From: a virus
Strand: one strand, 5' to 3'
Virus genome (UHGV): UHGV-0222911
Length of the DNA stretch: 64,000 nucleotides
A program made the translations under genes and the position numbers. This document shows, one piece after another, positions 1 to 56,728 of this stretch. The stretch's first letter is position 1, and every line of letters starts with the position of its first letter. The notes below the pieces were generated by a model. The model was given only the letters and a program-made list of their open reading frames with translations, made no database searches and was not told where the DNA came from.

Positions 1-951
1 TCAATGTTAAAAATCTTTGTAGTTGGCTTACCAAATGGCTTGATTTCATATGTCTGCATCTCACCGTTACGTACCTGCTGACGATACTTTGTCTTAGGGT
101 ACTTGGTAATTCTCTTCAGTCCATCTGCGTGACCAAATGCTTCAACATACTCATTCCAAGCTTTTGCAAACTCTTCTCCAGTGACTTTACCTTTGGTCTT
201 AATAGTTGGAGGAAGATGTGGTTCAACTTCTGAAGCAAGCTCATTAGTCAACTTGTCAAGTTCCTTTACATGGAACTCCATAAGCTCTTTATCAGCTTTC
301 CAACCATTGATAGCTTGTTGACTCATCCAGAAAGATGTTTCTTTAGCTCGCATATAGGTTTCATAAGTGTCTATGCCACACTTCTTTAGCTTGAGATACT
401 CATTATCCAGTGCGCGTTTAGTTTTGGCGTTAATACGGATATCTTCCACAACACGAGTGAAGATTTCTGCATTCCACACACCCCAATGTTCAATCTCTGG
501 TTTACGGACACCAACACGAGCACCCCATGCAGCCAAGCCATGAGCACCTTTATAGCCTTTTGGAGTTGGTCTATCCATCCACTGAACACGAGACTGGATA
601 AGAGAATCCTGAAAGAAATTACTCCACGGCTTACACTTTGGATTATCAAAGTTCCATAAATCAGGTGCAATGTGATTGAAAACCCACCAGTCATAACCCA
701 GACCATTATGGATGCAAAGTCGTTTTGCCTTTAACGCAAACTCAATACCTTCACGCAAACCACCCTTGATGTACTTGGTGTATTTGTGACCGAGGATAGG
801 CTCATCTGTAAAGACCCATACAGGTGGCTCTTCATCGTCAGATTTATAGTCTGCGAAAGCCATTACGTGCACTTTAGTGAACTCAAGGAGTAAACCATCA
901 GTTTCTGTATCACCAACTAAATGTAAGTTTTTAAAATCTACGTTTTCCATT
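1..951 (-). CDS. DNA polymerase, family A (T7 gp5-like), N-terminal 3'-5' exonuclease domain; gene continues beyond window start
   Basis: Own translation of minus strand from ATG at 949-951 (MENVDFKNLHLVGDTETDGL...) stays open to position 1; Exo I-like VGDTETDG and Exo II-like HNGLGYDW motifs; absent from ORF track because truncated. Confidence 0.6.
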
Positions 952-1010
952 TTTACTCCCTCTAAAATCATTAACCTCATACATTACTGCAAAAAATTAT
1001 AAAAAGCAAG

Positions 1011-16295: not shown

Positions 16296-16853
16296 ATGAA
16301 TTACGAACTAATATATAATGCAATTATTAAGAAGGCACATTCTGAAAGGGGTGTGCCTCTTACATACTACAAATGTCAAGGTAAGGGTTATGAAAGACAC
16401 CATATCATACCAGTATGTCTAGGTGGAGATAAAATTAGTGGAGATAATATTGCTTTGCTTACACCTAGAGAGCATTATATAGCTCATAAATTACTGGTTA
16501 AGATGTATCCAAACAATCATAAGTTATGGTTTGCATGGAACAGGTTAGCTCATGATGGCCTAGATAGGAAAATATCATCCAGAGACTATGAAAAGGTAAG
16601 AGCTTTGAACTCGAAAGCTTTATCTATTGTGAATAAAGGTAGGGTTTTCACTGAAGAACATCGAAGACGATTAGGAGAATCTCAAATAGGCAATACAAAA
16701 TCAAAAGGTTGTAAAAGGTCTATAGAAACAAGGAAGAAGATGTCAGAAGCCGGAAAAAAGCCAAAGAAAAAGAAAACTTGCCCTCATTGTGGTATGACTG
16801 GTGGTGCTGGTAACATGACTCGATATCATTTTGACAATTGTAAGAAAAAATAA
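16296..16853 (+). CDS. HNH homing endonuclease
   Basis: HHIIPVCLGGDKISGDNIALLTPREHYIAHK HNH motif; inserted between nrdD and nrdG; track ORF 16245.. trimmed to first ATG after nrdD stop. Confidence 0.6.
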   Translation: MNYELIYNAIIKKAHSERGVPLTYYKCQGKGYERHHIIPVCLGGDKISGDNIALLTPREHYIAHKLLVKMYPNNHKLWFAWNRLAHDGLDRKISSRDYEKVRALNSKALSIVNKGRVFTEEHRRRLGESQIGNTKSKGCKRSIETRKKMSEAGKKPKKKKTCPHCGMTGGAGNMTRYHFDNCKKK

Positions 16854-17017
16854 CCTTATGTAAAACTTGACATGGTGGTGTGAGTCTTGATAGGCTTACA
16901 TCACCTTTTTATTTGGATGTTAGATATGGCAGAGAGTATTATTGGGTTGTTCATAGGTTCTGTCTTACTAGGGTTCTTTTTAGGACTTTCTTATTGTGAA
17001 TTGAAAGGTAAGTTAAA

Positions 17018-17218
17018 ATGTTTAAGATATCAAAAGCGTTGATATACATACTCCATATTCTAGTCTTCTTCTTTGGGGTTAGTGTTATGGTATGGGGTTT
17101 TTCAGACCCACAATGGAGTTTCTCATATCATGGTCAGATGGATTTATGGTCATGCTTCAAACCATTTTTAGGGTTAGTCATAGCATTCAGTGCATTACCA
17201 ACTAAGGTGAAATTATGA
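17018..17218 (+). CDS. hypothetical small membrane protein
   Basis: 66 aa with two hydrophobic segments. Confidence 0.25.
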   Translation: MFKISKALIYILHILVFFFGVSVMVWGFSDPQWSFSYHGQMDLWSCFKPFLGLVIAFSALPTKVKL

Positions 17219-17610
17219 TTAAGTTGAGCCAAAAACAGTTAGAGTGGATTAAAGATTATGCCTCAGAGTGTGGCTCTTGTGAAAAGAATCATGTAAGATA
17301 CTCAACATTCCACACGGTCTTCACATTGTATATCGGCGACAATGTTCTAAGTGATTCTGTAGAAGATGGTGTAGCATTGCCTAATGAATTGCTTGACAAA
17401 TTAGCTGTAGTCACTGGAACTTGGTCTGAAGAAGATGGTCACGAACTATCTGATGATGTTGTCTTCTACAGTCTTGAAAACATCATGAATCCAGAGTACA
17501 TTATGCTAATGACTTGCGCACAAGATTGTGTACCATTACAAAACTTCATTAAAGAGCACTGTGAAGAATTTATTACTAAACAGGTTCCTTGTCAGGTGGT
17601 GTTTGAATGA
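17215..17610 (+). CDS. hypothetical protein
   Basis: 131 aa, start overlaps previous stop (ATGA). Confidence 0.35.
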   Translation: MIKLSQKQLEWIKDYASECGSCEKNHVRYSTFHTVFTLYIGDNVLSDSVEDGVALPNELLDKLAVVTGTWSEEDGHELSDDVVFYSLENIMNPEYIMLMTCAQDCVPLQNFIKEHCEEFITKQVPCQVVFE

Positions 17611-17669
17611 GTAAAACAATTCGAAGAAAAGGTTTAAAGAACATTTATATTTATTGGTGAGGTAACTAG

Positions 17670-18155
17670 ATGAATTACATGGAGATTAGACCATTTGACA
17701 CGGCTAATGGTGAAGGGGTTCGTGTAAGCCTCTTCGTAGCTGGTTGTAAGCATCACTGTGAAGGCTGCTTTAACAGGGAGTCTTGGAAGTTTAATGCTGG
17801 TAAGGTATTTACTTATGCAAACCTCTACGGAATCATCCAGCTAATGGGTGATAATGCTGTCAGTGGTTTGTCAATACTTGGTGGAGAACCTCTGGATGAT
17901 AGAAATATTCAAGAGGTTACAGACATATGCAAACGTGTTAAAACTGTTTACCCAGAGAAGACTATATGGCTCTGGACAGGTTTTCAGTTACACGAAAAAA
18001 TTCACCTAGATGTAATGAAATATGTTGACGTGGTGATTGATGGTAAGTATGATTCATCTAAACCAACAGTTAAACCATATCGTGGTTCTGATAACCAAAA
18101 CCTCTGGAGAAAAGAGTATGGGTGGCAAGGCGATTGTCAATGGAGAGCCGAGTAA
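17670..18155 (+). CDS. nrdG: anaerobic RNR activating protein (radical SAM)
   Basis: CKHHCEGC (CxxxCxxC) radical-SAM cluster motif, 161 aa, downstream of nrdD. Confidence 0.8.
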   Translation: MNYMEIRPFDTANGEGVRVSLFVAGCKHHCEGCFNRESWKFNAGKVFTYANLYGIIQLMGDNAVSGLSILGGEPLDDRNIQEVTDICKRVKTVYPEKTIWLWTGFQLHEKIHLDVMKYVDVVIDGKYDSSKPTVKPYRGSDNQNLWRKEYGWQGDCQWRAE

Positions 18156-36904: not shown

Positions 36905-38560
36905 ACGTCTATGCAATAGCCCCTATACAAGCCTTTCCCTTTCCTTTCCAGAATCTATCCCGTACCTTAAAAGCAATAACTCTATAGCTTACTCTATAGC
37001 CCCTTATCAAATCAACTTAAATAAAAGCCAATAACCCCAGAAAGGGGATGGCCTACTAATTGGTATTGTTACCAATCCCCTAAACGCTCTATAAAGCTCT
37101 ATAACAGCCTTATCAACCTAACTTAAGGGATTGCATTAACCCACTCTAAAAAGCCCTTTATAAAGCTTCCTATAGCCTTAAAAGAATCTTATAAGGGTGT
37201 AAGCTTTATCATCTCGTTAGTTATCTTGTGAATAACTCAATAGCCCTTGATAGTCTCTAAAAAGTATGTTATAGGGGCTGTTAAGTTACTTTGAAGTTAC
37301 GTAAAAGAGGCTATAAAGTTACGTAAACGCTAGCCCCCTTAACATTTTCTTAACAATTTCTTAACAATCCCTACATAGTTATGCTTTTAAGGCACTTGTT
37401 AGAGACTTGTTAGCCCCTTGTTAAATCTCTGTTAAGACCACGTAAAAGCCTTGTAAGAGTCTTTGGCATAGCCTTTAAAGCTCCTATAAAGCCCTATAAA
37501 GAGGTGTCTGTATAGTTGGGGTGTAGTTACTAGGAAGAGACTTAAAAGAGCTTATAAGGGGCTATAGAGAGCTTTTAAGAGGTATGTTTAGAGAGTCACT
37601 AAAAGGGAAGGGAACAATAAGAAAAGAGTAGTGACCATGTTAATAGCTTGTTAAAAAGATTAAACACTTGTTAGGAACTTGTTAATTATCTAATTGGTAT
37701 TGTTACCAATCCCTAACAAAATAACTCTTTAAAATTAACTTGTTAGCTCTTGTTAGTCATCTGTTAAGATTCTGTAAAGTCTATGTATCAACTGTTAAGA
37801 AACTGTTACATCCTTGTTAGTTCTGTTAAGAATCTGTTAAGACCTTTGAAGAGTTGTTAAGAGGATGTAGTAGCTGTTAAGAGATTGTTAAGGATATTTT
37901 AAAATTTTGCAAAGTACTTGTAAGGGAGCTGTTAAGGGCTACCAAGCAGATATACATCTTCTACAGATATTTTTCAGTTCCTTCAAAGACCCTAAAAAAT
38001 GACTTGACAGTCCTATTTTATAAAAATTTTAAAATTCTGAATAATTACCTAGACAGTCTTTTAAAAATACAGGCATAAACAGGCTTATAAGATACCTTGT
38101 TAGTACCGTGTTAGACCTTGTGAGATAAGGTCTGTAAAGATATTCCTGTTAAGTTTGTTAAAACAGTCTATATAGAGGCTTAGTATTTCCTAGTGAACAC
38201 CTATAGAGAGTAACATAGCTAACCTAATGGGTTACTGTTAAGTAACACAGGTAACCTAGAGATTAAGAGGTGTATAGGAGCTTCTAAGAGGGTGTAGAGA
38301 GATGGTTAAGGTGATTGTATAGGTTGTTAAGAAGGCTTGTTAGAAGAGTGTTTAGAAGGGCTATACAGAGGGGCTATTAAGACCACTAGATAGATACTAA
38401 GATACTATATAGTACTATATAACTATATAGAGAGTAAGATTAAGAAGGTTGTTAAGAAGGATAGATATTTTATTCACATATGATGGTGACCCAGAGGTTG
38501 GGACAACCGATAAAATTTTATAAAAATTAAAAAGCCCCCAATTAAGGAGGCTCTTAAGAT
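36905..38560. repeat. 1.7 kb ORF-free region densely populated by YTGTTARG iterons and CTATARAG motifs, plus two copies of CTAATTGGTATTGTTACCAATCCC
   Basis: More than 25 copies of (C)TTGTTAG / CTGTTAAG, often in runs with 10-12 bp period (e.g. 37395-37436, 37739-37892); no ORF of 60 aa or more; lies between convergent gene blocks. Confidence 0.6.
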
Positions 38561-38563
38561 ATT

Positions 38564-39157
38564 TTAAATCAGTGTTTCCAGAACTGTCTTTAGTGATGAC
38601 TTGGTTGTCTGATAAAAATGAGTAAATCCATTGTTATTATCGAATACCTGCATCATGATATCATCTCCCTTGATTGGGTACACTCGGATATCATAGTGAA
38701 AACCATTAAAGACACAAGAACCACTACAGAATGCTCTAAAGTCATCCACTGAGATATACTCTTCATGACCTGTGATTTTTATACAAACACCTTTACTCGG
38801 TCTCTTAGGGTTGATATCTTCCATCACAGACATACTCTGTCCACCAAGAGATACCATAGTGACCACTTTACGGTTCTTCTGTTTAAAGTACATCTTAACT
38901 TTCTGCAAAGTGTCTTCATAGAACGGATACGACTTCTCTACAAAGATTCCTTCAAGTGGCTCTTTACCATTTTGAACCTCTCTGTAACCCCGTACTGCAA
39001 AGATAATTTGTTCTAACCTATTAAGGCTTTCTTCGTAGAGTGCTCCACGAATATCATTCCAGTCAAGGACTAGGTAGTTACCTTCAACTTCTTTTAAGTT
39101 ATCTTTTTCCATAGCTATCACACCATTATCGTAAAACTTGGTAAGCTGGAACTGCAA
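38564..39157 (-). CDS. hypothetical protein
   Basis: 197 aa ORF, first (3'-most) gene of minus-strand block; start may be the internal ATG at 39112. Confidence 0.35.
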   Translation of the reverse strand: MQFQLTKFYDNGVIAMEKDNLKEVEGNYLVLDWNDIRGALYEESLNRLEQIIFAVRGYREVQNGKEPLEGIFVEKSYPFYEDTLQKVKMYFKQKNRKVVTMVSLGGQSMSVMEDINPKRPSKGVCIKITGHEEYISVDDFRAFCSGSCVFNGFHYDIRVYPIKGDDIMMQVFDNNNGFTHFYQTTKSSLKTVLETLI

Positions 39158-46686: not shown

Positions 46687-47058
46687 ATGAAAAACAGAAC
46701 AAACAAAGGCCAGTTTAAAAAAGGCCAGTCTGGAAACCCATCTGGAAGACCAAAAGGCTCTCGTAACAAAAGCTCACTCGTAAAAGCTCAACTGACCATT
46801 GATAATTCTGCTGAGTTTGCTGCAAAGCTGTTTGAGGCGATTGTTACAAGGGACGCTGCTAAGCTTGCAGAGTTTGGGTTAAACACAGATGACGTAACCA
46901 TCAAGAGCATGATTGAGGTCGGTAAAACCATCTTTACTCACTCAGCAGGTGAGATGAAAGCACTTGCAGCAGACACTAAGAAAACCCCTGATAATGGCGG
47001 TCAGCCACAGACAGATAACAAACCAACGTTCTCTGCTGTAGCGACTCTCAAAAAATAA
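46687..47058 (+). CDS. hypothetical protein with N-terminal basic GNPxGRPKG motif
   Basis: 123 aa; KGQFKKGQSGNPSGRPKGSRNK. Confidence 0.35.
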   Translation: MKNRTNKGQFKKGQSGNPSGRPKGSRNKSSLVKAQLTIDNSAEFAAKLFEAIVTRDAAKLAEFGLNTDDVTIKSMIEVGKTIFTHSAGEMKALAADTKKTPDNGGQPQTDNKPTFSAVATLKK

Positions 47059-47138: not shown

Positions 47139-48554
47139 ATGAGCGAATTATTTAAACATGCGCACCTTCATGCAGGTCGAACTGAAAATGGTGCTGTAAA
47201 CCATACTTCATCAATGTCTGCTCTTGTAGACTTTTACAAAGCTGCTGGTTCTAGCCGTAGCAATGTAGAAATCTTACCAGACCTGTTCTACAAAGCTTTG
47301 CGTGAGGATGTTGATGTTGCAGTTCGTATTTTACTGCATATGCGAGATGTACGAGAAGGTATGGGTGAGCGTAAAGCTTTCCGAACTGTTTTAATTCAAG
47401 CAGTTGAAGATAAAGTTTTAGAACCTACACAGGTTCTTCGCATTATGGATAAGATTGCAGAGCTTGGTCGCTTTGATGACTTCAAAATCTTTGTAGGTAC
47501 TCGTTTCGAGACAGATGCCTTCAAACACTTAGAAGCAGCATTACTAGACCCTGCAACAGCAGGTTTGGCGGCTAAGTGGTTACCACGAGTCAAACCACGT
47601 CATAAGCAGTTTGTAAAACGTTTCTGCAAGTTTGCCAACTTGAGCGAGAAAGAGTACCGCACACTGTTGTCTGCACTATCTGATACAGTTGAGCAAAAAA
47701 TCTCTGCTAATGAGTTTGGTAAGATTGACTACAGTAAGATTCCTTCACTTGCTGCTGCACGCTACCAAAAACTGTTTAACCGTAAAGATGGAGAGCGATA
47801 CAAAGCTTACATCGAGTCCTTATCAAAGGGTGAGGCTAAGATTAATGCTGGTGCTGTTTACCCATACGATGTGATTAAATCTGTCAAGCATGGTAATGCA
47901 GATGTTGCTAATGAGCAGTGGAAAGCACTACCAAACTGGATGGCAGAAGGTGAAAACATCTTATGTATGTCTGATGTATCAAGTTCAATGTCTTGGGTGA
48001 ATTTTGGCTCCATTACTGCTCTGGATATTGGTGTATCACTTGCCTTGTATGTAGCAGAACGCAATACAGGCTGCTTTAAGAATGAGTTGATGGTTTATTC
48101 AACAAACCCTCACTTCATCGAACTGAGTGGTGATTTACGAAACCGTCATCGTCAGGTGATGCGACACGTTGAATATGGCTCAACTAACTTACAAGCAGCT
48201 TTTGACCGTATTCTTGAGGTAGGTAAGAGAAACAACTTGACTCAGAAAGATATGCCAAGTAAGCTTATCATCTTCTCTGATATGGAGTTCAATCAGGTTG
48301 ATGGTGCAAATGGTCGTACAAACTTTGAAGTAATTCGTAGTAAGTACAAAAAAGCTGGATACGAAATGCCACAACTAGTATTCTGGTACTTAGCAAACCG
48401 TAATGGTACTTGCGAAGTGTCTGTTAAGGATAACGGTGTAGCAATGGTATCAGGGTTCTCTCCAGCCACTTTAAAAGCTCTGCTCGGTGGTGAGAATTTT
48501 GACCCAATCAGCGTAATGCTCAAAGCAGTAATGATTGACCGTTACATCTGGTAA
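47139..48554 (+). CDS. vWA-domain protein with helical N-terminal domain (possible Ro60/TROVE-like architecture)
   Basis: 471 aa; MIDAS-type DVSSSM (DxSxS) with downstream GSTN and FSDMEF elements in the C-terminal half; N-terminal about 280 aa helical. Confidence 0.45.
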   Translation: MSELFKHAHLHAGRTENGAVNHTSSMSALVDFYKAAGSSRSNVEILPDLFYKALREDVDVAVRILLHMRDVREGMGERKAFRTVLIQAVEDKVLEPTQVLRIMDKIAELGRFDDFKIFVGTRFETDAFKHLEAALLDPATAGLAAKWLPRVKPRHKQFVKRFCKFANLSEKEYRTLLSALSDTVEQKISANEFGKIDYSKIPSLAAARYQKLFNRKDGERYKAYIESLSKGEAKINAGAVYPYDVIKSVKHGNADVANEQWKALPNWMAEGENILCMSDVSSSMSWVNFGSITALDIGVSLALYVAERNTGCFKNELMVYSTNPHFIELSGDLRNRHRQVMRHVEYGSTNLQAAFDRILEVGKRNNLTQKDMPSKLIIFSDMEFNQVDGANGRTNFEVIRSKYKKAGYEMPQLVFWYLANRNGTCEVSVKDNGVAMVSGFSPATLKALLGGENFDPISVMLKAVMIDRYIW

Positions 48555-55111: not shown

Positions 55112-56728
55112 TTGCGGAGGCGCTTAATGGACTTAAATGCTGTTAAGCAGAAGCGAGTGGAAGATGTTAGGAAAGTCCTAGCTGGAGAGTTGGGGCTTTC
55201 TGATGAAGTAAAAGAAATTATCAAATCATTCGGTAAAGACCCCTCTAAATTCCTTCCAACTCAAATTCTGACTTTATTAAGATACACACCAGACCAAGTT
55301 AGACTTATCTTCAAATTGATGACTGATAAGAACTATGTAGCCCCTCAGCCGGGTTCTCAAGAGGTCTTTTTAAATACTAATGCTGACTTGGTTCTCTATG
55401 GTGGTGCTGCGGGTGCTGGTAAGACTGCTGCATTGTTAATGGACTCTTTAAGGTTTATTGATGACCCTAATTATAATGCTGTATATTTCCGTCGAAATAC
55501 AACACAGCTACAAGGTGGTTTGTGGCCTGCTGCAAAGAAACTATTTGGTAAGTTTGGTGGGGTTCCTCACGAGCAGAAGATGACTATCACATTCCCTTCT
55601 GGGGCAACTATCAAGTTTACCTATCTAGAGCTTGAAAAGCACGCTGAAGGTCATCAGGGTATTGAGTATTCAGCTATTTACTTTGACGAAGGTACTCACT
55701 TCTCTGCTTCACAGATTTCATACCTACAGACCCGTCTGCGTTCTGGTGCTGAAGGTGACTCATACATGAAGATTTCTATGAACCCAGATAGAGACCACTT
55801 CATTTATGATTGGGTAGAACCCTTCTTAGATGAAGAAGGTTACCCAGACCCTGAGAAGTGCGGTCGTATTCGTTGGTATGTTATGAATGATGGTGTGATG
55901 GTTTCTGATTGGGAAAGAGACAAGATTCTTGAAATGTTCCCTCTTGAGATTCCTCAGACATACACCTTCATCTCTGGTACGATTGATGATAACCCAATTC
56001 TTGACTTCTTAGAACCTAAATATCGTGGTAAGTTGGAAAACAACACACCTGTAAACGTTGCAAGACTTCGTTTCGGTAACTGGAAGGCTCGCGCAGAAGG
56101 TTCAAACTATTGGCAAAGACAATGGTGTGAGATTGTTGATTCACTCCCAGAAGATGTGTTTGATGTCAGAGCATGGGACTTAGCAGCAACTTTACCATCT
56201 GAGATTAACCCTAATCCAGACTGGACAGCGGGTGTTAAGATGGGTAAATCTAAAAAAGACGGTTGCTATTATATCATTGATGTAGTAAGATTTAGAGATA
56301 GACCCTCTGGAGTCGAAACACAAATTAATTTGACTGCTGAAAGTGACGGTAAGCGAACTGGTATTTTTATCCCTCAAGACCCAGGCGCTGCTGGTAAATC
56401 CTATGCAACATCCCTCATCAGGAAACTTGCCGAGAAAGGTTATCGCGCAAGAGCTAAACCAACAAATAAAGATAAAGTTACCCGCTTTGCGGGATTTTCT
56501 GCTGCTTCTGAAGCTGGACTTGTAAAAGTCTTGAGAGGTAGTTGGAACGAAGCTTACTTTCAAGAACTTGAAGGTTTTTGTGGTGATGGTAAAACTAAAG
56601 ATGACCAAGTGGATGCTACCAGTGATGCTTTCAACAGTCTTAACGAAGTTAAATTATTCAAGCCACCATCAATGGGTGCTCACACAGACTTAGTGAGAGG
56701 AAACCCATATGAGGGGCTTAGACGTTGA
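55112..56728 (+). CDS. terL: terminase large subunit
   Basis: 538 aa; Walker A LYGGAAGAGKT, Walker B-like IYFDEGTH; C-terminal nuclease-like region; followed by portal gene. Confidence 0.8.
   Translation: MRRRLMDLNAVKQKRVEDVRKVLAGELGLSDEVKEIIKSFGKDPSKFLPTQILTLLRYTPDQVRLIFKLMTDKNYVAPQPGSQEVFLNTNADLVLYGGAAGAGKTAALLMDSLRFIDDPNYNAVYFRRNTTQLQGGLWPAAKKLFGKFGGVPHEQKMTITFPSGATIKFTYLELEKHAEGHQGIEYSAIYFDEGTHFSASQISYLQTRLRSGAEGDSYMKISMNPDRDHFIYDWVEPFLDEEGYPDPEKCGRIRWYVMNDGVMVSDWERDKILEMFPLEIPQTYTFISGTIDDNPILDFLEPKYRGKLENNTPVNVARLRFGNWKARAEGSNYWQRQWCEIVDSLPEDVFDVRAWDLAATLPSEINPNPDWTAGVKMGKSKKDGCYYIIDVVRFRDRPSGVETQINLTAESDGKRTGIFIPQDPGAAGKSYATSLIRKLAEKGYRARAKPTNKDKVTRFAGFSAASEAGLVKVLRGSWNEAYFQELEGFCGDGKTKDDQVDATSDAFNSLNEVKLFKPPSMGAHTDLVRGNPYEGLRR

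Follow-up and report, generated by a model that had tools for sequence, protein, structure and literature searches.

What is the function of a stretch of about 1.7 kb in a phage genome that is free of genes and filled with short, regularly spaced repeats? The stretch in question, positions 36905-38560, lies in a 64-kb phage sequence (UHGV-0222911; "the window" denotes this whole stretch of 64,000 nucleotides), and an earlier note made from the letters of the sequence had offered an origin, a centromere, or a terminus or pac region as possible answers. BLAST placed the window in Felixounavirus, among the Felix O1-like phages of the Ounavirinae; our first guess, the injection-stop region of a T5-type long terminal repeat, was dropped on this assignment.

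An untranscribed spacer between convergent gene blocks

No open reading frame (ORF) of at least 60 amino acids lies within 36930-38564, in agreement with the earlier description of the region as ORF-free, and its left border is overlapped only by two minus-strand ORFs (36722-36916 and 36760-36930). An intrinsic terminator was found on either side:

36872..36899, plus strand: intrinsic terminator (stem-loop and T-run) closing the rightward block of small genes, the last plus-strand gene of which ends at 36837
38530..38555, minus strand: intrinsic terminator closing the leftward gene block, the first minus-strand gene of which ends at 38564

The corresponding stretch of 1.6-1.7 kb is non-coding in 256 records from Felixounavirus, Suspvirus and Mooglevirus. 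Comparison shows the region to be an untranscribed spacer between two convergent terminators. A non-coding RNA was rejected as an explanation, as an Rfam search of the region gave no match better than E = 0.14, and a cluster of promoters was rejected because sigma-70-like sites were not enriched (12, versus 8.2 ± 3.4 in shuffled sequences).

A helically phased array of TGTTA units

Motif counts in the spacer are far above what shuffling predicts. YTGTTA occurs 29 times on the plus strand of 36905-38560 (1.66 kb), in line with the more than 25 copies reported before, whereas 1000 dinucleotide shuffles gave 1.92 ± 1.35 copies with a maximum of 7; on the same strand, YTGTTARG was observed 15 times (0.28 expected) and CTATARAG 6 times (0.27 expected). 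The density of YTGTTA is 17.5 per kb in the region as compared to 0.77 per kb across the other 62 kb, and the motif is strongly biased by strand, with only 4 copies on the minus strand against the 29 on the plus strand. The plus strand carries 32 TGTTA cores in all. The array is laid out as follows, "repeat" denoting a 611-bp segment (37333-37943) described in the next section:

36905..37332: left flank, made up of degenerate CTATAAAG / CTATAGCCCC-like units of 10-11 bp, most of them inverted (motif map)
37337..37367, minus strand: inverted units CCTTAACA, CTTAACAA and CTTAACAA, 11 bp apart and immediately inside the left edge of the repeat, which score as two ArcA boxes (see below)
37395..37436, plus strand: four CTTGTTAG / CTGTTAAG units, exactly 11 bp apart
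37460..37636: centre of the repeat, with TATAAAG, TATAGAG and CTTAAAAG-type units and few TGTTA cores (motif map, repeat families D4 and D7)
37637..37686, plus strand: run of four TGTTA units
37739..37937, plus strand: main run of about 15 TGTTA(A/G)G units, extending to the right edge of the repeat
37957..38530: right flank, A+T-rich and unit-free to about 38090, then with scattered TGTTA and TATAGAG units at 38097-38456

Both head-to-tail runs named in the earlier note (37395-37436 and 37739-37892) were found. The repeat holds 21 forward and 4 inverted TGTTA cores, with the units close to each of its edges pointing toward that edge. In the left flank, autocorrelation is seen at lags 10, 11, 22 and 32 (z = 2.7-3.8), and TAGCCC occurs in the plus orientation only.

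Neighbouring YTGTTA copies are mostly 11 bp apart (9 cases), with further spacings of 9-10 and 20-21 bp, and pairwise distances peak at 11, 20-22, 31, 40-42, 51-53 and 60-64 bp. Fourier analysis within 37333-37943 retrieved a peak at 10.4 bp (power 0.70, against a median of 0.02), upholding the earlier claim of helical phasing. Intrinsic curvature through phased A-tracts was rejected: tracts of at least three A or T are not periodic beyond expectation (z = 1.5), and the periodicity of AA and TT (z = 3-5) is accounted for by the TGTTA motif itself. The phasing is best read as pointing to cooperative protein binding along one face of the DNA.

Two copies of a hairpin-forming sequence had also been described as part of this array. 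Both are present, as the only two exact copies of the 24-mer CTAATTGGTATTGTTACCAATCCC, whose folded form is a hairpin with a stem of 7 bp (-4.7 kcal/mol, z = -4.7), although they start at 37056 and 37690 rather than at 37058 and 37689. The element is not a component of the array but a 22-bp insertion polymorphism, missing from most relatives:

37056..37079, plus strand: hairpin element copy 1 (22-24 bp); among the aligned relatives, only SUSP2 has a near-identical copy here
37690..37713, plus strand: hairpin element copy 2, inserted within the repeat; found at the same site in Ro111lw and in genomes L025, L027 and L034, and lacking in most relatives

The array coincides with the direct terminal repeat of relatives

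Direct terminal repeats (DTRs) determined with PhageTerm have been reported for relatives of this phage (PMC6454146, PMC8303462, PMC11737134), PhageTerm results being available for Ro111lw, Pr103Blw, D4, Fifi106 and Fifi318. The exact terminal duplications of Ro111lw (613 bp) and of phage D4 (581 bp) both map onto 37333-37943 of the window, and both terminate at 37943; several records of PhageTerm-opened relatives begin at about 37333, and others finish at about 37942-37952. Since these duplications map there, the array can be described as a DTR with its flanks, and the mapped ends and the DTR of the relatives coincide with the densest part of the array, which favours the "terminus or pac region" among the options first proposed.

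37333..37943: DTR of about 611 bp, placed by homology (about 87-91% identity to relatives)
37331..37344, plus strand: left-edge element TAGCCCCCTTAACA, at the putative left terminus 37332/37333; conserved in four genera
37930..37941, minus strand: right-edge element TAGCCCTTAACA (bottom strand), at the putative right terminus 37943/37944
37944..37956, plus strand: conserved box AAGCAGATATACA just outside the right terminus, identical in three genera

Judged by sequence comparison, the gene-free 1.7 kb appears to be the genome-end (concatemer-junction) region, containing both the start and the end of the linear chromosome. The DTR would then be represented once in the collapsed or permuted sequence of the window and twice in virion DNA, where the left flank would be unique sequence just ahead of the right-end repeat and the right flank unique sequence following the left-end repeat. 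The array is absent from the Felix O1 genome paper, which speaks only of "short terminal repeats" and of other repeats.

The pattern TAGCCC-N0-3-TTAACA is found only twice in the 64 kb (0.05 expected), once at each edge of the repeat and in inverted orientation. As judged from PhageTerm-style calls, the distance from TAGCCC to the cut is not the same at both edges, differing by about 4 nt. The edge elements were used to predict the termini of the distant Erwinia phages of the genus Kolesnikvirus, at about 17028 and about 17466 in phiEa21-4, and the prediction was borne out by records that begin at 17027-17029 and finish at 17465-17468; M7, of the same genus, has an exact 444-bp DTR at the homologous place. 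The 13-mer AAGCAGATATACA was read from the sequence of phiEa21-4, its counterpart at that place in M7 being GTAGATATACA.

The record of Roscha1 begins at the predicted terminus yet contains a single copy of the repeat. TGTTA units run on for about 500 bp past the right edge, where a pure "repeat ruler" would not need them.

Conservation of the units across genera

In 31 sequences, the TGTTA cores are 99.1% identical, as compared to 88.0% for the other columns of the repeat (permutation p < 0.0002). The right flank is also highly conserved, with most 50-bp bins at 0.83-0.95 and dips to 0.58-0.70 at 38188-38287. In phiEa21-4 only the edges of the repeat align, yet the TGTTA unit and the lags of 11, 22, 32-35 and 43-44 persist. 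The number of units in the run at 37395..37436 differs between phages by 11-bp steps; EC6 has gained 11-bp units, the number at this position is lower in Felix O1 and Alf5, and Alf5 carries an extra inverted unit. Because the number varies in steps of 11 bp, the phase is kept. The TGTTA unit is shared by four genera, whereas the flank arrays differ (CTATAAAG versus CTTCTAAG).

Candidate packaging proteins and a model for the genome ends

None of the relatives examined carries a small terminase annotation. Two genes of the window are of interest as possible partners of the array:

46687..47058, plus strand: DUF5681 protein of 123 aa, candidate array binder (Pfam DUF5681, E = 2e-14 on the D4 orthologue)
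55112..56728, plus strand: large terminase TerL (Terminase_6N/6C, phrog_979), the expected nuclease and motor at the repeat edges

TerL is 70% identical to the TerL of phiEa21-4, and the DUF5681 protein is 60% identical to phiEa21-4 gp42; the basic N-terminal third of the latter is near-identical among Ounavirinae orthologues and contains the invariant basic motif FKKGQSGNPxGRPKGSxN. In two unrelated lineages of distant phages (L045/L046 and L051), DUF5681 genes overlap the start of TerL by 20 nt, and in a third lineage the gene follows a ParB_N-methylase gene. This position directly upstream of TerL suggests that the product of 46687-47058 is a probable small terminase. In the present phage the gene lies 8 kb from TerL, with a Ro-like gene, a tRNA island and two ORFs between them. 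Within 4 kb on either side of the DUF5681 genes of the distant phages we found no TGTTA arrays, and their packaging sites may lie elsewhere; as the N-terminal motif is common to phages without such arrays nearby, it may mean general rather than sequence-specific contact with DNA. An AlphaFold model of the protein, itself weak (pLDDT 67), shows two long helices and, at residues 1-27, a basic arm that is disordered, and a Foldseek search with this low-confidence model gave no match at E < 1.

Two other candidates were set aside. The 66-aa ORF directly upstream of TerL, considered as a small terminase, is acidic as judged by eye from its sequence, shares only 30% identity with the corresponding phiEa21-4 protein, and gave no family or structure match. 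The N-terminal extension of TerL, considered as a DNA reader, had no PDB sequence match, and its homologue search gave only 3 fragments, too few to model.

The best overall explanation, and on balance a probable one, is that this is the genome-end region and that the array acts as a protein-binding handle for cutting and packaging. Proteins would bind the array cooperatively, and the array would thereby serve as a scaffold that marks where genome copies join in replicated concatemers and that directs cleavage by the large terminase to both edge elements, with one cut in each strand. Strand-displacement synthesis, the mechanism put forward for T7-type phages, would then duplicate the 611 bp that separate the two cuts, leaving a full repeat at both ends of every packaged genome. 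The reader of the units is most likely the DUF5681 protein, the putative small terminase. ArcA-P, the phosphorylated form of the oxygen-response regulator ArcA of the host (a two-component system), may assist it as an architectural cofactor, a predicted role suggested by the match between its known site architecture and the TGTTA units.

ArcA-like boxes in the terminal repeat

The site of ArcA-P consists of a 10-bp element, ATGTTAAAAA, with TGTTA as its most conserved core; elements are arranged as direct repeats 11 bp apart centre-to-centre, extra elements follow at 11 or 22 bp, binding is cooperative, and more or better elements lead to occupancy even in air (PMC3798270, PMC4173790). We built a position weight matrix (PWM) from 115 published 18-bp ArcA boxes, with a threshold of 11.8 bits corresponding to the 25th percentile of the real boxes (minimum 7.4, median 13.1 bits). 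Ten boxes reach at least 11.8 bits in the 611-bp repeat versus 4 in the other 62 kb, a 256-fold enrichment (16.4 versus 0.064 per kb), and shuffles of the repeat give 0.08. Boxes at or above the median of real ones lie at 37339 (minus strand), 37350 (minus), 37418 (plus) and 37637 (plus). The repeat of M7 has 11 boxes in 444 bp, as compared to 2 in the 83 kb of phiEa21-4 outside the repeat; the ends of T7 have 0.

Alternative explanations

Variation in the number of 11-bp units between close relatives (EC6, Felix O1, Alf5) indicates that slippage is active, and the repeats could be imagined as a functionless by-product of replication slippage or unequal recombination inside the terminal repeat. 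We consider this extremely improbable, since the TGTTA cores are far more conserved than the spacers, the differing spacers show that the units did not arise by copying of a single recent one, and unit, orientation pattern and phase persist in a genus in which the interior of the repeat does not align. An origin of replication, with the units as iterons for a phage or host initiator and 37944-38090 as the unwinding element, would fit the phased direct repeats adjoining that A+T-rich, unit-free segment, the absence of transcription, and the reported binding of ArcA-P to oriC. This proposal of the earlier note nevertheless appears very unlikely. There is no cluster of DnaA boxes, only two with one mismatch that lie 1.2 kb apart; the flanking genes have no Pfam match and PHROG matches only to families of unknown function, so that no initiator gene is evident beside the array; the units measure 8 bp every 10-11 bp, versus 17-22 bp for iterons; and the replication genes (DNA polymerase, primase/helicase) lie far off, diverging from a point at the start of the window, some 37 kb from the array. 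GC skew tracks gene orientation only, and the array falls exactly on the terminal repeat, so that termini account for it without an origin. The centromere reading likewise found no support, as the complete annotation of the relative D4 contains no ParA, ParM or ParB partner, and a Pfam scan of 20 conserved proteins of unknown function returned no Par family.

A different division of labour, in which the array is above all a giant host ArcA-P binding site and the terminase recognizes the edge elements alone, we regard as possible but somewhat unlikely. Such a predicted site might titrate ArcA-P, lifting anaerobic repression of respiratory and TCA genes as hundreds of genome copies accumulate, or might make a genome-end step dependent on the redox state of the host. 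The architecture is that of ArcA sites (TGTTA core, direct repeats, modal spacing of 11 bp, 32 plus-strand cores), the boxes are concentrated in the terminal repeats here and in M7, and the known hosts (Escherichia, Salmonella, Shigella, Citrobacter and Erwinia) are all Enterobacterales, with a working ArcBA system in E. amylovora; a host factor would explain why an identical unit is found in four phage genera despite their differing flank arrays. On the other hand, the flanking-base preferences of the ArcA element (A/T at -1, A/C/T at +5, A/T-rich at +6 to +9) are not followed: C occupies -1 in 11/32 phage units (34%) as compared to 3/115 ArcA boxes (3%), G at +5 in 9/32 (28%) as compared to 3/115 (3%), and G at +6 in 15/32 (47%) as compared to 9/115 (8%). 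Second-neighbour spacings of 20 bp are also commoner in the phage than those of 22 bp. In a genome-wide screen in Salmonella, arcA was absent from the Felix O1 host factors; arcB was among them, but it was shared with an unrelated phage and is attributed by the authors of the screen to an RpoS network. In addition, Felix O1-type phages grow well in air, a condition of low ArcA-P. The more specific proposal that the chromosome ends of this whole subfamily of lytic enterobacterial phages carry more than 20 putative ArcA sites, on which ArcA-P would polymerise, is a tentative one that we think rather unlikely; the polymer would act either as an architectural cofactor in end formation and packaging or by titrating ArcA-P and so reprogramming the respiration of the infected host. 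If true, it would tie phage development to the availability of oxygen in the gut or in plant tissue.

Implications

Felix O1-type phages are widely used in Salmonella typing, biocontrol and therapy. For these phages our analysis supplies candidates at the nucleotide level, namely two cut sites and a conserved cis-acting array, together with DUF5681 as a candidate family of small terminases and a connection to a redox regulator of the host that can be tested. These could serve for correcting genome start points in annotation, for packaging-competent vectors or transducing plasmids, and for predicting altered behaviour of these phages in anaerobic hosts. Should ArcA indeed bind, a virulent phage would be exploiting a response regulator as a structural cofactor or a decoy target, which is rarely seen.

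Comparison with known systems

The type II centromere parC of plasmid R1 consists of ten 11-bp iterons that are bound cooperatively by ParR to form a helical scaffold. The present array resembles it in having many short direct repeats one helical turn apart, but the phage is lytic, no ParM or ParA gene is annotated, and the array lies at the genome termini. E. coli ArcA-P sites share with the phage array the TGTTA core, the head-to-tail arrangement and the modal spacing of 11 bp, and the scores of the phage boxes fall in the range of real ones; however, ArcA-P sites have 2-5 elements and lie at promoters, whereas the phage array has 21 + 4 cores and no promoter, and the flanking bases are Y-TGTTA-R-G in the phage as compared to W-TGTTA-H-W for ArcA.

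The sites of small terminases (SPP1/SF6 pac, lambda cosB with IHF, and HK97 cos; PMC4737164, PMC11331095) are likewise cis-acting sites beside a cut, thought to engage many subunits of an oligomer, and in lambda a host architectural protein assists (IHF at cosB). They differ in being shorter, in lacking a long array of one phased unit, and in serving headful or cos packaging, with no duplicated terminal repeat.

As proposed here, the ends of T7 consist of a short direct terminal repeat that is non-permuted and lies in non-coding DNA, with arrays of 7-8-bp units in one orientation at the repeat (the SRL/SRR short-repeat arrays); in the T7 sequence we found the 160-bp repeat followed by (C)CTAAAG / ATAAAG units at nt 176-340. 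The T7 units, however, lie outside the repeat and 13 bp apart, and hence not on one helical face, whereas in this phage units of another sequence fill the repeat at 10.4-11 bp. T7 is a podovirus, whereas the present phage is an unrelated myovirus with a T4-type TerL fold.

A conserved non-coding gap filled with phased TGTTA units

Between 36930 and 38564 the window contains no ORF of at least 60 aa, as the earlier note had claimed. All relatives examined have the syntenic 1.6-1.7 kb without annotation, flanked by a small rightward gene on one side and a leftward gene on the other. Matches to the region came from 256 phage records, at identities of roughly 76-92%; almost all belong to Felixounavirus, Suspvirus or Mooglevirus (subfamily Ounavirinae). 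Terminators mark the borders of the region:

36872-36899, + strand, rightward terminator (left border of the region)
38530-38555, - strand, leftward terminator (right border of the region)

Promoter-like sites were not enriched in the region, and an Rfam search of it gave no match. Being unannotated in relatives, terminator-bounded and without promoter enrichment or Rfam match, the region is a conserved, probably untranscribed non-coding stretch.

The + strand of 36905-38560 carries 29 copies of YTGTTA, versus 1.92 +/- 1.35 (maximum 7) expected from 1000 dinucleotide-preserving shuffles, and 15 of the full YTGTTARG versus 0.28 expected; YTGTTA density is 17.5 per kb, compared with 0.77 per kb in the remaining window. 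The - strand of the region has just four copies. Neighbouring copies are most commonly spaced by 11 bp, pairwise distances peak at 11, 20-22, 31, 40-42, 51-53 and 60-64 bp, and the spectrum of the motif indicator has a sharp 10.4-bp peak. The enrichment and one-helical-turn phasing proposed in the earlier note thus withstood the shuffle and periodicity checks, and the two copies of the hairpin-forming sequence, a 24-mer, were recovered at 37056 and 37690.

The array is densest in what is almost certainly the terminal repeat

Several relatives' records start at the equivalent of window ~37333 and others stop at ~37943-37952. Ro111lw and D4, two relatives with mapped ends, carry exact duplications of 613 bp and 581 bp, respectively, at their two ends, both of which align to 37333-37943. 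Direct terminal repeats (DTRs) of these lengths, obtained with PhageTerm, were published for Ro111lw, D4 and related phages (PMC6454146, PMC8303462, PMC11737134); the Felix O1 genome paper mentions only 'short terminal repeats', deduced from genome size. Since these record ends and duplications align to 37333-37943 (~611 bp), where the array is densest, this stretch is, by homology, almost certainly the DTR of the virion chromosome, and the ORF-free sequence outside it is unique DNA flanking the DTR on either side. Among the functions that had been guessed for the array, a terminus or pac region is supported, and an origin or a centromere is not.

The contig of a metagenomic relative (L029, IMG/VR contig 3300045988_004931) stops no more than 3 bp from the left DTR edge (window ~37336), as expected if assemblers stall at a doubled-coverage terminal repeat. 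GC skew changes sign at ~1 kb (window 1-1000), by synteny with D4 the point where leftward DNA-polymerase and rightward primase/helicase genes diverge, and a more conventional spot to seek a replication origin than the array.

Edge elements and anatomy of the repeat

The left DTR edge reads CTA and then, across the boundary, GCCCCCTTAACA; the right edge reads TGTTAAGGGCTACC and then AAGCAGATATACA. The 64-kb window has just two copies of the element TAGCCC-N0-3-TTAACA (0.05 expected), one at each DTR edge and in mutually inverted orientation, and a (TA)GCCC..TTAACA..CTTAACA pattern opens the DNA from both physical ends, reading inward. Three inverted units lie directly inside the left edge and all 21 TGTTA cores from 37396 to the right edge point rightward; units near each edge therefore face that edge.

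TAGCCC itself has six + copies (36857, 36917, 36997, 37241, 37331 and 37411), a single inverted copy at 36849, within the terminator stem, and four - copies (37559, 37936, 38358 and 38371). Among them, CTCTATAGCCCCTTAT (36992) and ATAAGGGGCTATAGAG (37554) are perfect inverted repeats of each other over 16 nt. The whole region (36857-37416 versus 37559-38376) has a loose dyad symmetry that is not limited to the TGTTA units.

Conservation and change of the array

Across 31 aligned, non-identical sequences, TGTTA cores in the DTR are 99.1% identical, compared with 88.0% for other DTR columns (permutation p < 0.0002). Whole 11-bp units are gained or lost between close relatives (window 37345-37370 and 37385-37420): EC6 has additional CTTGTTAGTAG units where Felix O1 and Alf5 have fewer, and Alf5 has one additional inverted unit, TTTCTTAACAA. 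The array therefore grows and shrinks by whole helical turns.

A 22-bp palindromic element, AATTGGTATTGTTACCAATCCC (37058-37079 and 37692-37713), is confined to the region within the 64-kb window and has a TTGTTA unit in its loop. It is an insertion polymorphism, also involving the relatives' records L010, L013, L017, L025, L027, L032, L033 and L034, with at least five insertion sites in the region among phages (window ~37060, ~37601, 37694, 37740 and 37798), and VpaE1 carries it reversed at the ~37601 site. This element behaves like a tiny mobile hairpin targeting the array. Its insertion, together with the 11-bp unit changes, plausibly accounts for DTR lengths of 581, 611 and 613 bp, by an arithmetic that we infer.

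The same construction in Kolesnikvirus

The Erwinia phage phiEa21-4 (Kolesnikvirus; record L038), whose large terminase (TerL) is 70% identical to that of the window, has a nearly ORF-free gap of ~1.2-1.4 kb at the syntenic position. TGTTAR reaches 12.5 per kb in this gap versus 0.60 elsewhere, with autocorrelation at 11/22/32-35/43-44 as in the window; alignment to the window survives only at the two DTR edges. From the edge elements, termini were expected near 17028 and 17466; the starts of Kolesnikvirus records indeed fall at 17027-17029 and their ends at 17465-17468. M7, an Erwinia Kolesnikvirus, has an exact 444-bp terminal duplication at the predicted place, the units of its left half being inverted and those of its right half direct. 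The left flank in phiEa21-4 (16617-16915) holds another phased array, of twelve CTTCTAA(G/A) at 10-12 bp spacing, where Felixounavirus has CTATAAAG / CTATAGCC units; the DTR unit has therefore been kept across genera while flank units diverged.

The annotated 73-aa CDS gp32 of phiEa21-4 (17660-17881) sits within the right-flank GTTAAG array and is probably not a real gene; D4 CDS0001 (1033-1170) and CDS0149 are similar cases.

A proposed scaffold for end formation and a candidate small terminase

The best-supported reading, which we regard as fairly probable, is that the array is a scaffold for end formation. Helically phased, oriented and selectively conserved units would point to cooperative protein binding along one DNA face, and the inverted edge elements may direct one nuclease to opposite strands, 611 bp apart. 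Such cuts would have the geometry of DTR duplication by staggered nicks and strand displacement, the classical model for T7-type phages.

No small terminase is annotated in the relatives. A comparison of all ORFs of D4 with those of phiEa21-4, combined with a Pfam scan of twenty conserved proteins without a known function, yielded one candidate, listed here with TerL:

46687-47058, DUF5681 (Pfam) protein, 123 aa, putative small terminase
55112-56728, large terminase (TerL)

The DUF5681 protein is 60% identical to its phiEa21-4 counterpart, in another genus, and has an invariant basic N-terminal motif, FKKGQSGNPxGRPKGSxN, whose GRP core between basic residues appears AT-hook-like. The DUF5681 gene overlaps the TerL gene start, the classical small-terminase position, in two unrelated phage lineages, and follows a ParB_N-methylase gene in a third. 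The protein is probably a small terminase; structure prediction was uninformative. Here a 471-aa gene, a tRNA island and two ORFs separate it from TerL. The 471-aa protein (47139-48554), encoded just upstream of the island, which holds the window's 26 tRNA genes, has a D4 orthologue annotated 'RNA-binding protein'.

A serious rival, or cofactor, is the host regulator ArcA, which we rank below the end-formation scaffold. ArcA-P sites are direct repeats with TGTTA as best-conserved core, 11 bp centre-to-centre; additional elements lie at 11 or 22 bp, binding is cooperative, and sites with more or stronger elements are filled even in air (PMC3798270, PMC4173790). The phage unit matches this architecture. 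With a weight matrix from 115 published ArcA boxes and a cut-off of 11.8 bits, ten boxes were found in the 611-bp DTR (0.08 in DTR shuffles) and four in the other 62 kb; the M7 DTR has eleven, the rest of phiEa21-4 two and the T7 ends none. Every known host of these phages belongs to the Enterobacterales, and a functional ArcBA system is present in Erwinia amylovora. However, the bases flanking the core depart from real ArcA sites at three positions, toward bases rare there, and a genome-wide Salmonella screen for Felix O1 host factors listed arcB but not arcA; arcB was common to an unrelated phage, and the authors credit an RpoS-mediated effect.

How these ends compare with known systems

That Felix O1-type phages have a terminal repeat was known before; for its phased TGTTA construction, the inverted elements at its edges, the match to ArcA sites and the DUF5681 candidate, no description was found in the literature searched, which lay mostly outside subscription journals. 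The closest known system is the T7 end, where, according to the T7 record, a 160-bp repeat precedes an array of CCTAAAG-type units. That array is outside the repeat, and its units, being 13 bp apart, are not helically phased, whereas the units here fill the DTR at ~10.4-11 bp. Functional analogues of the array are small-terminase recognition sites and the lambda cosB site with IHF (PMC4737164, PMC11331095).
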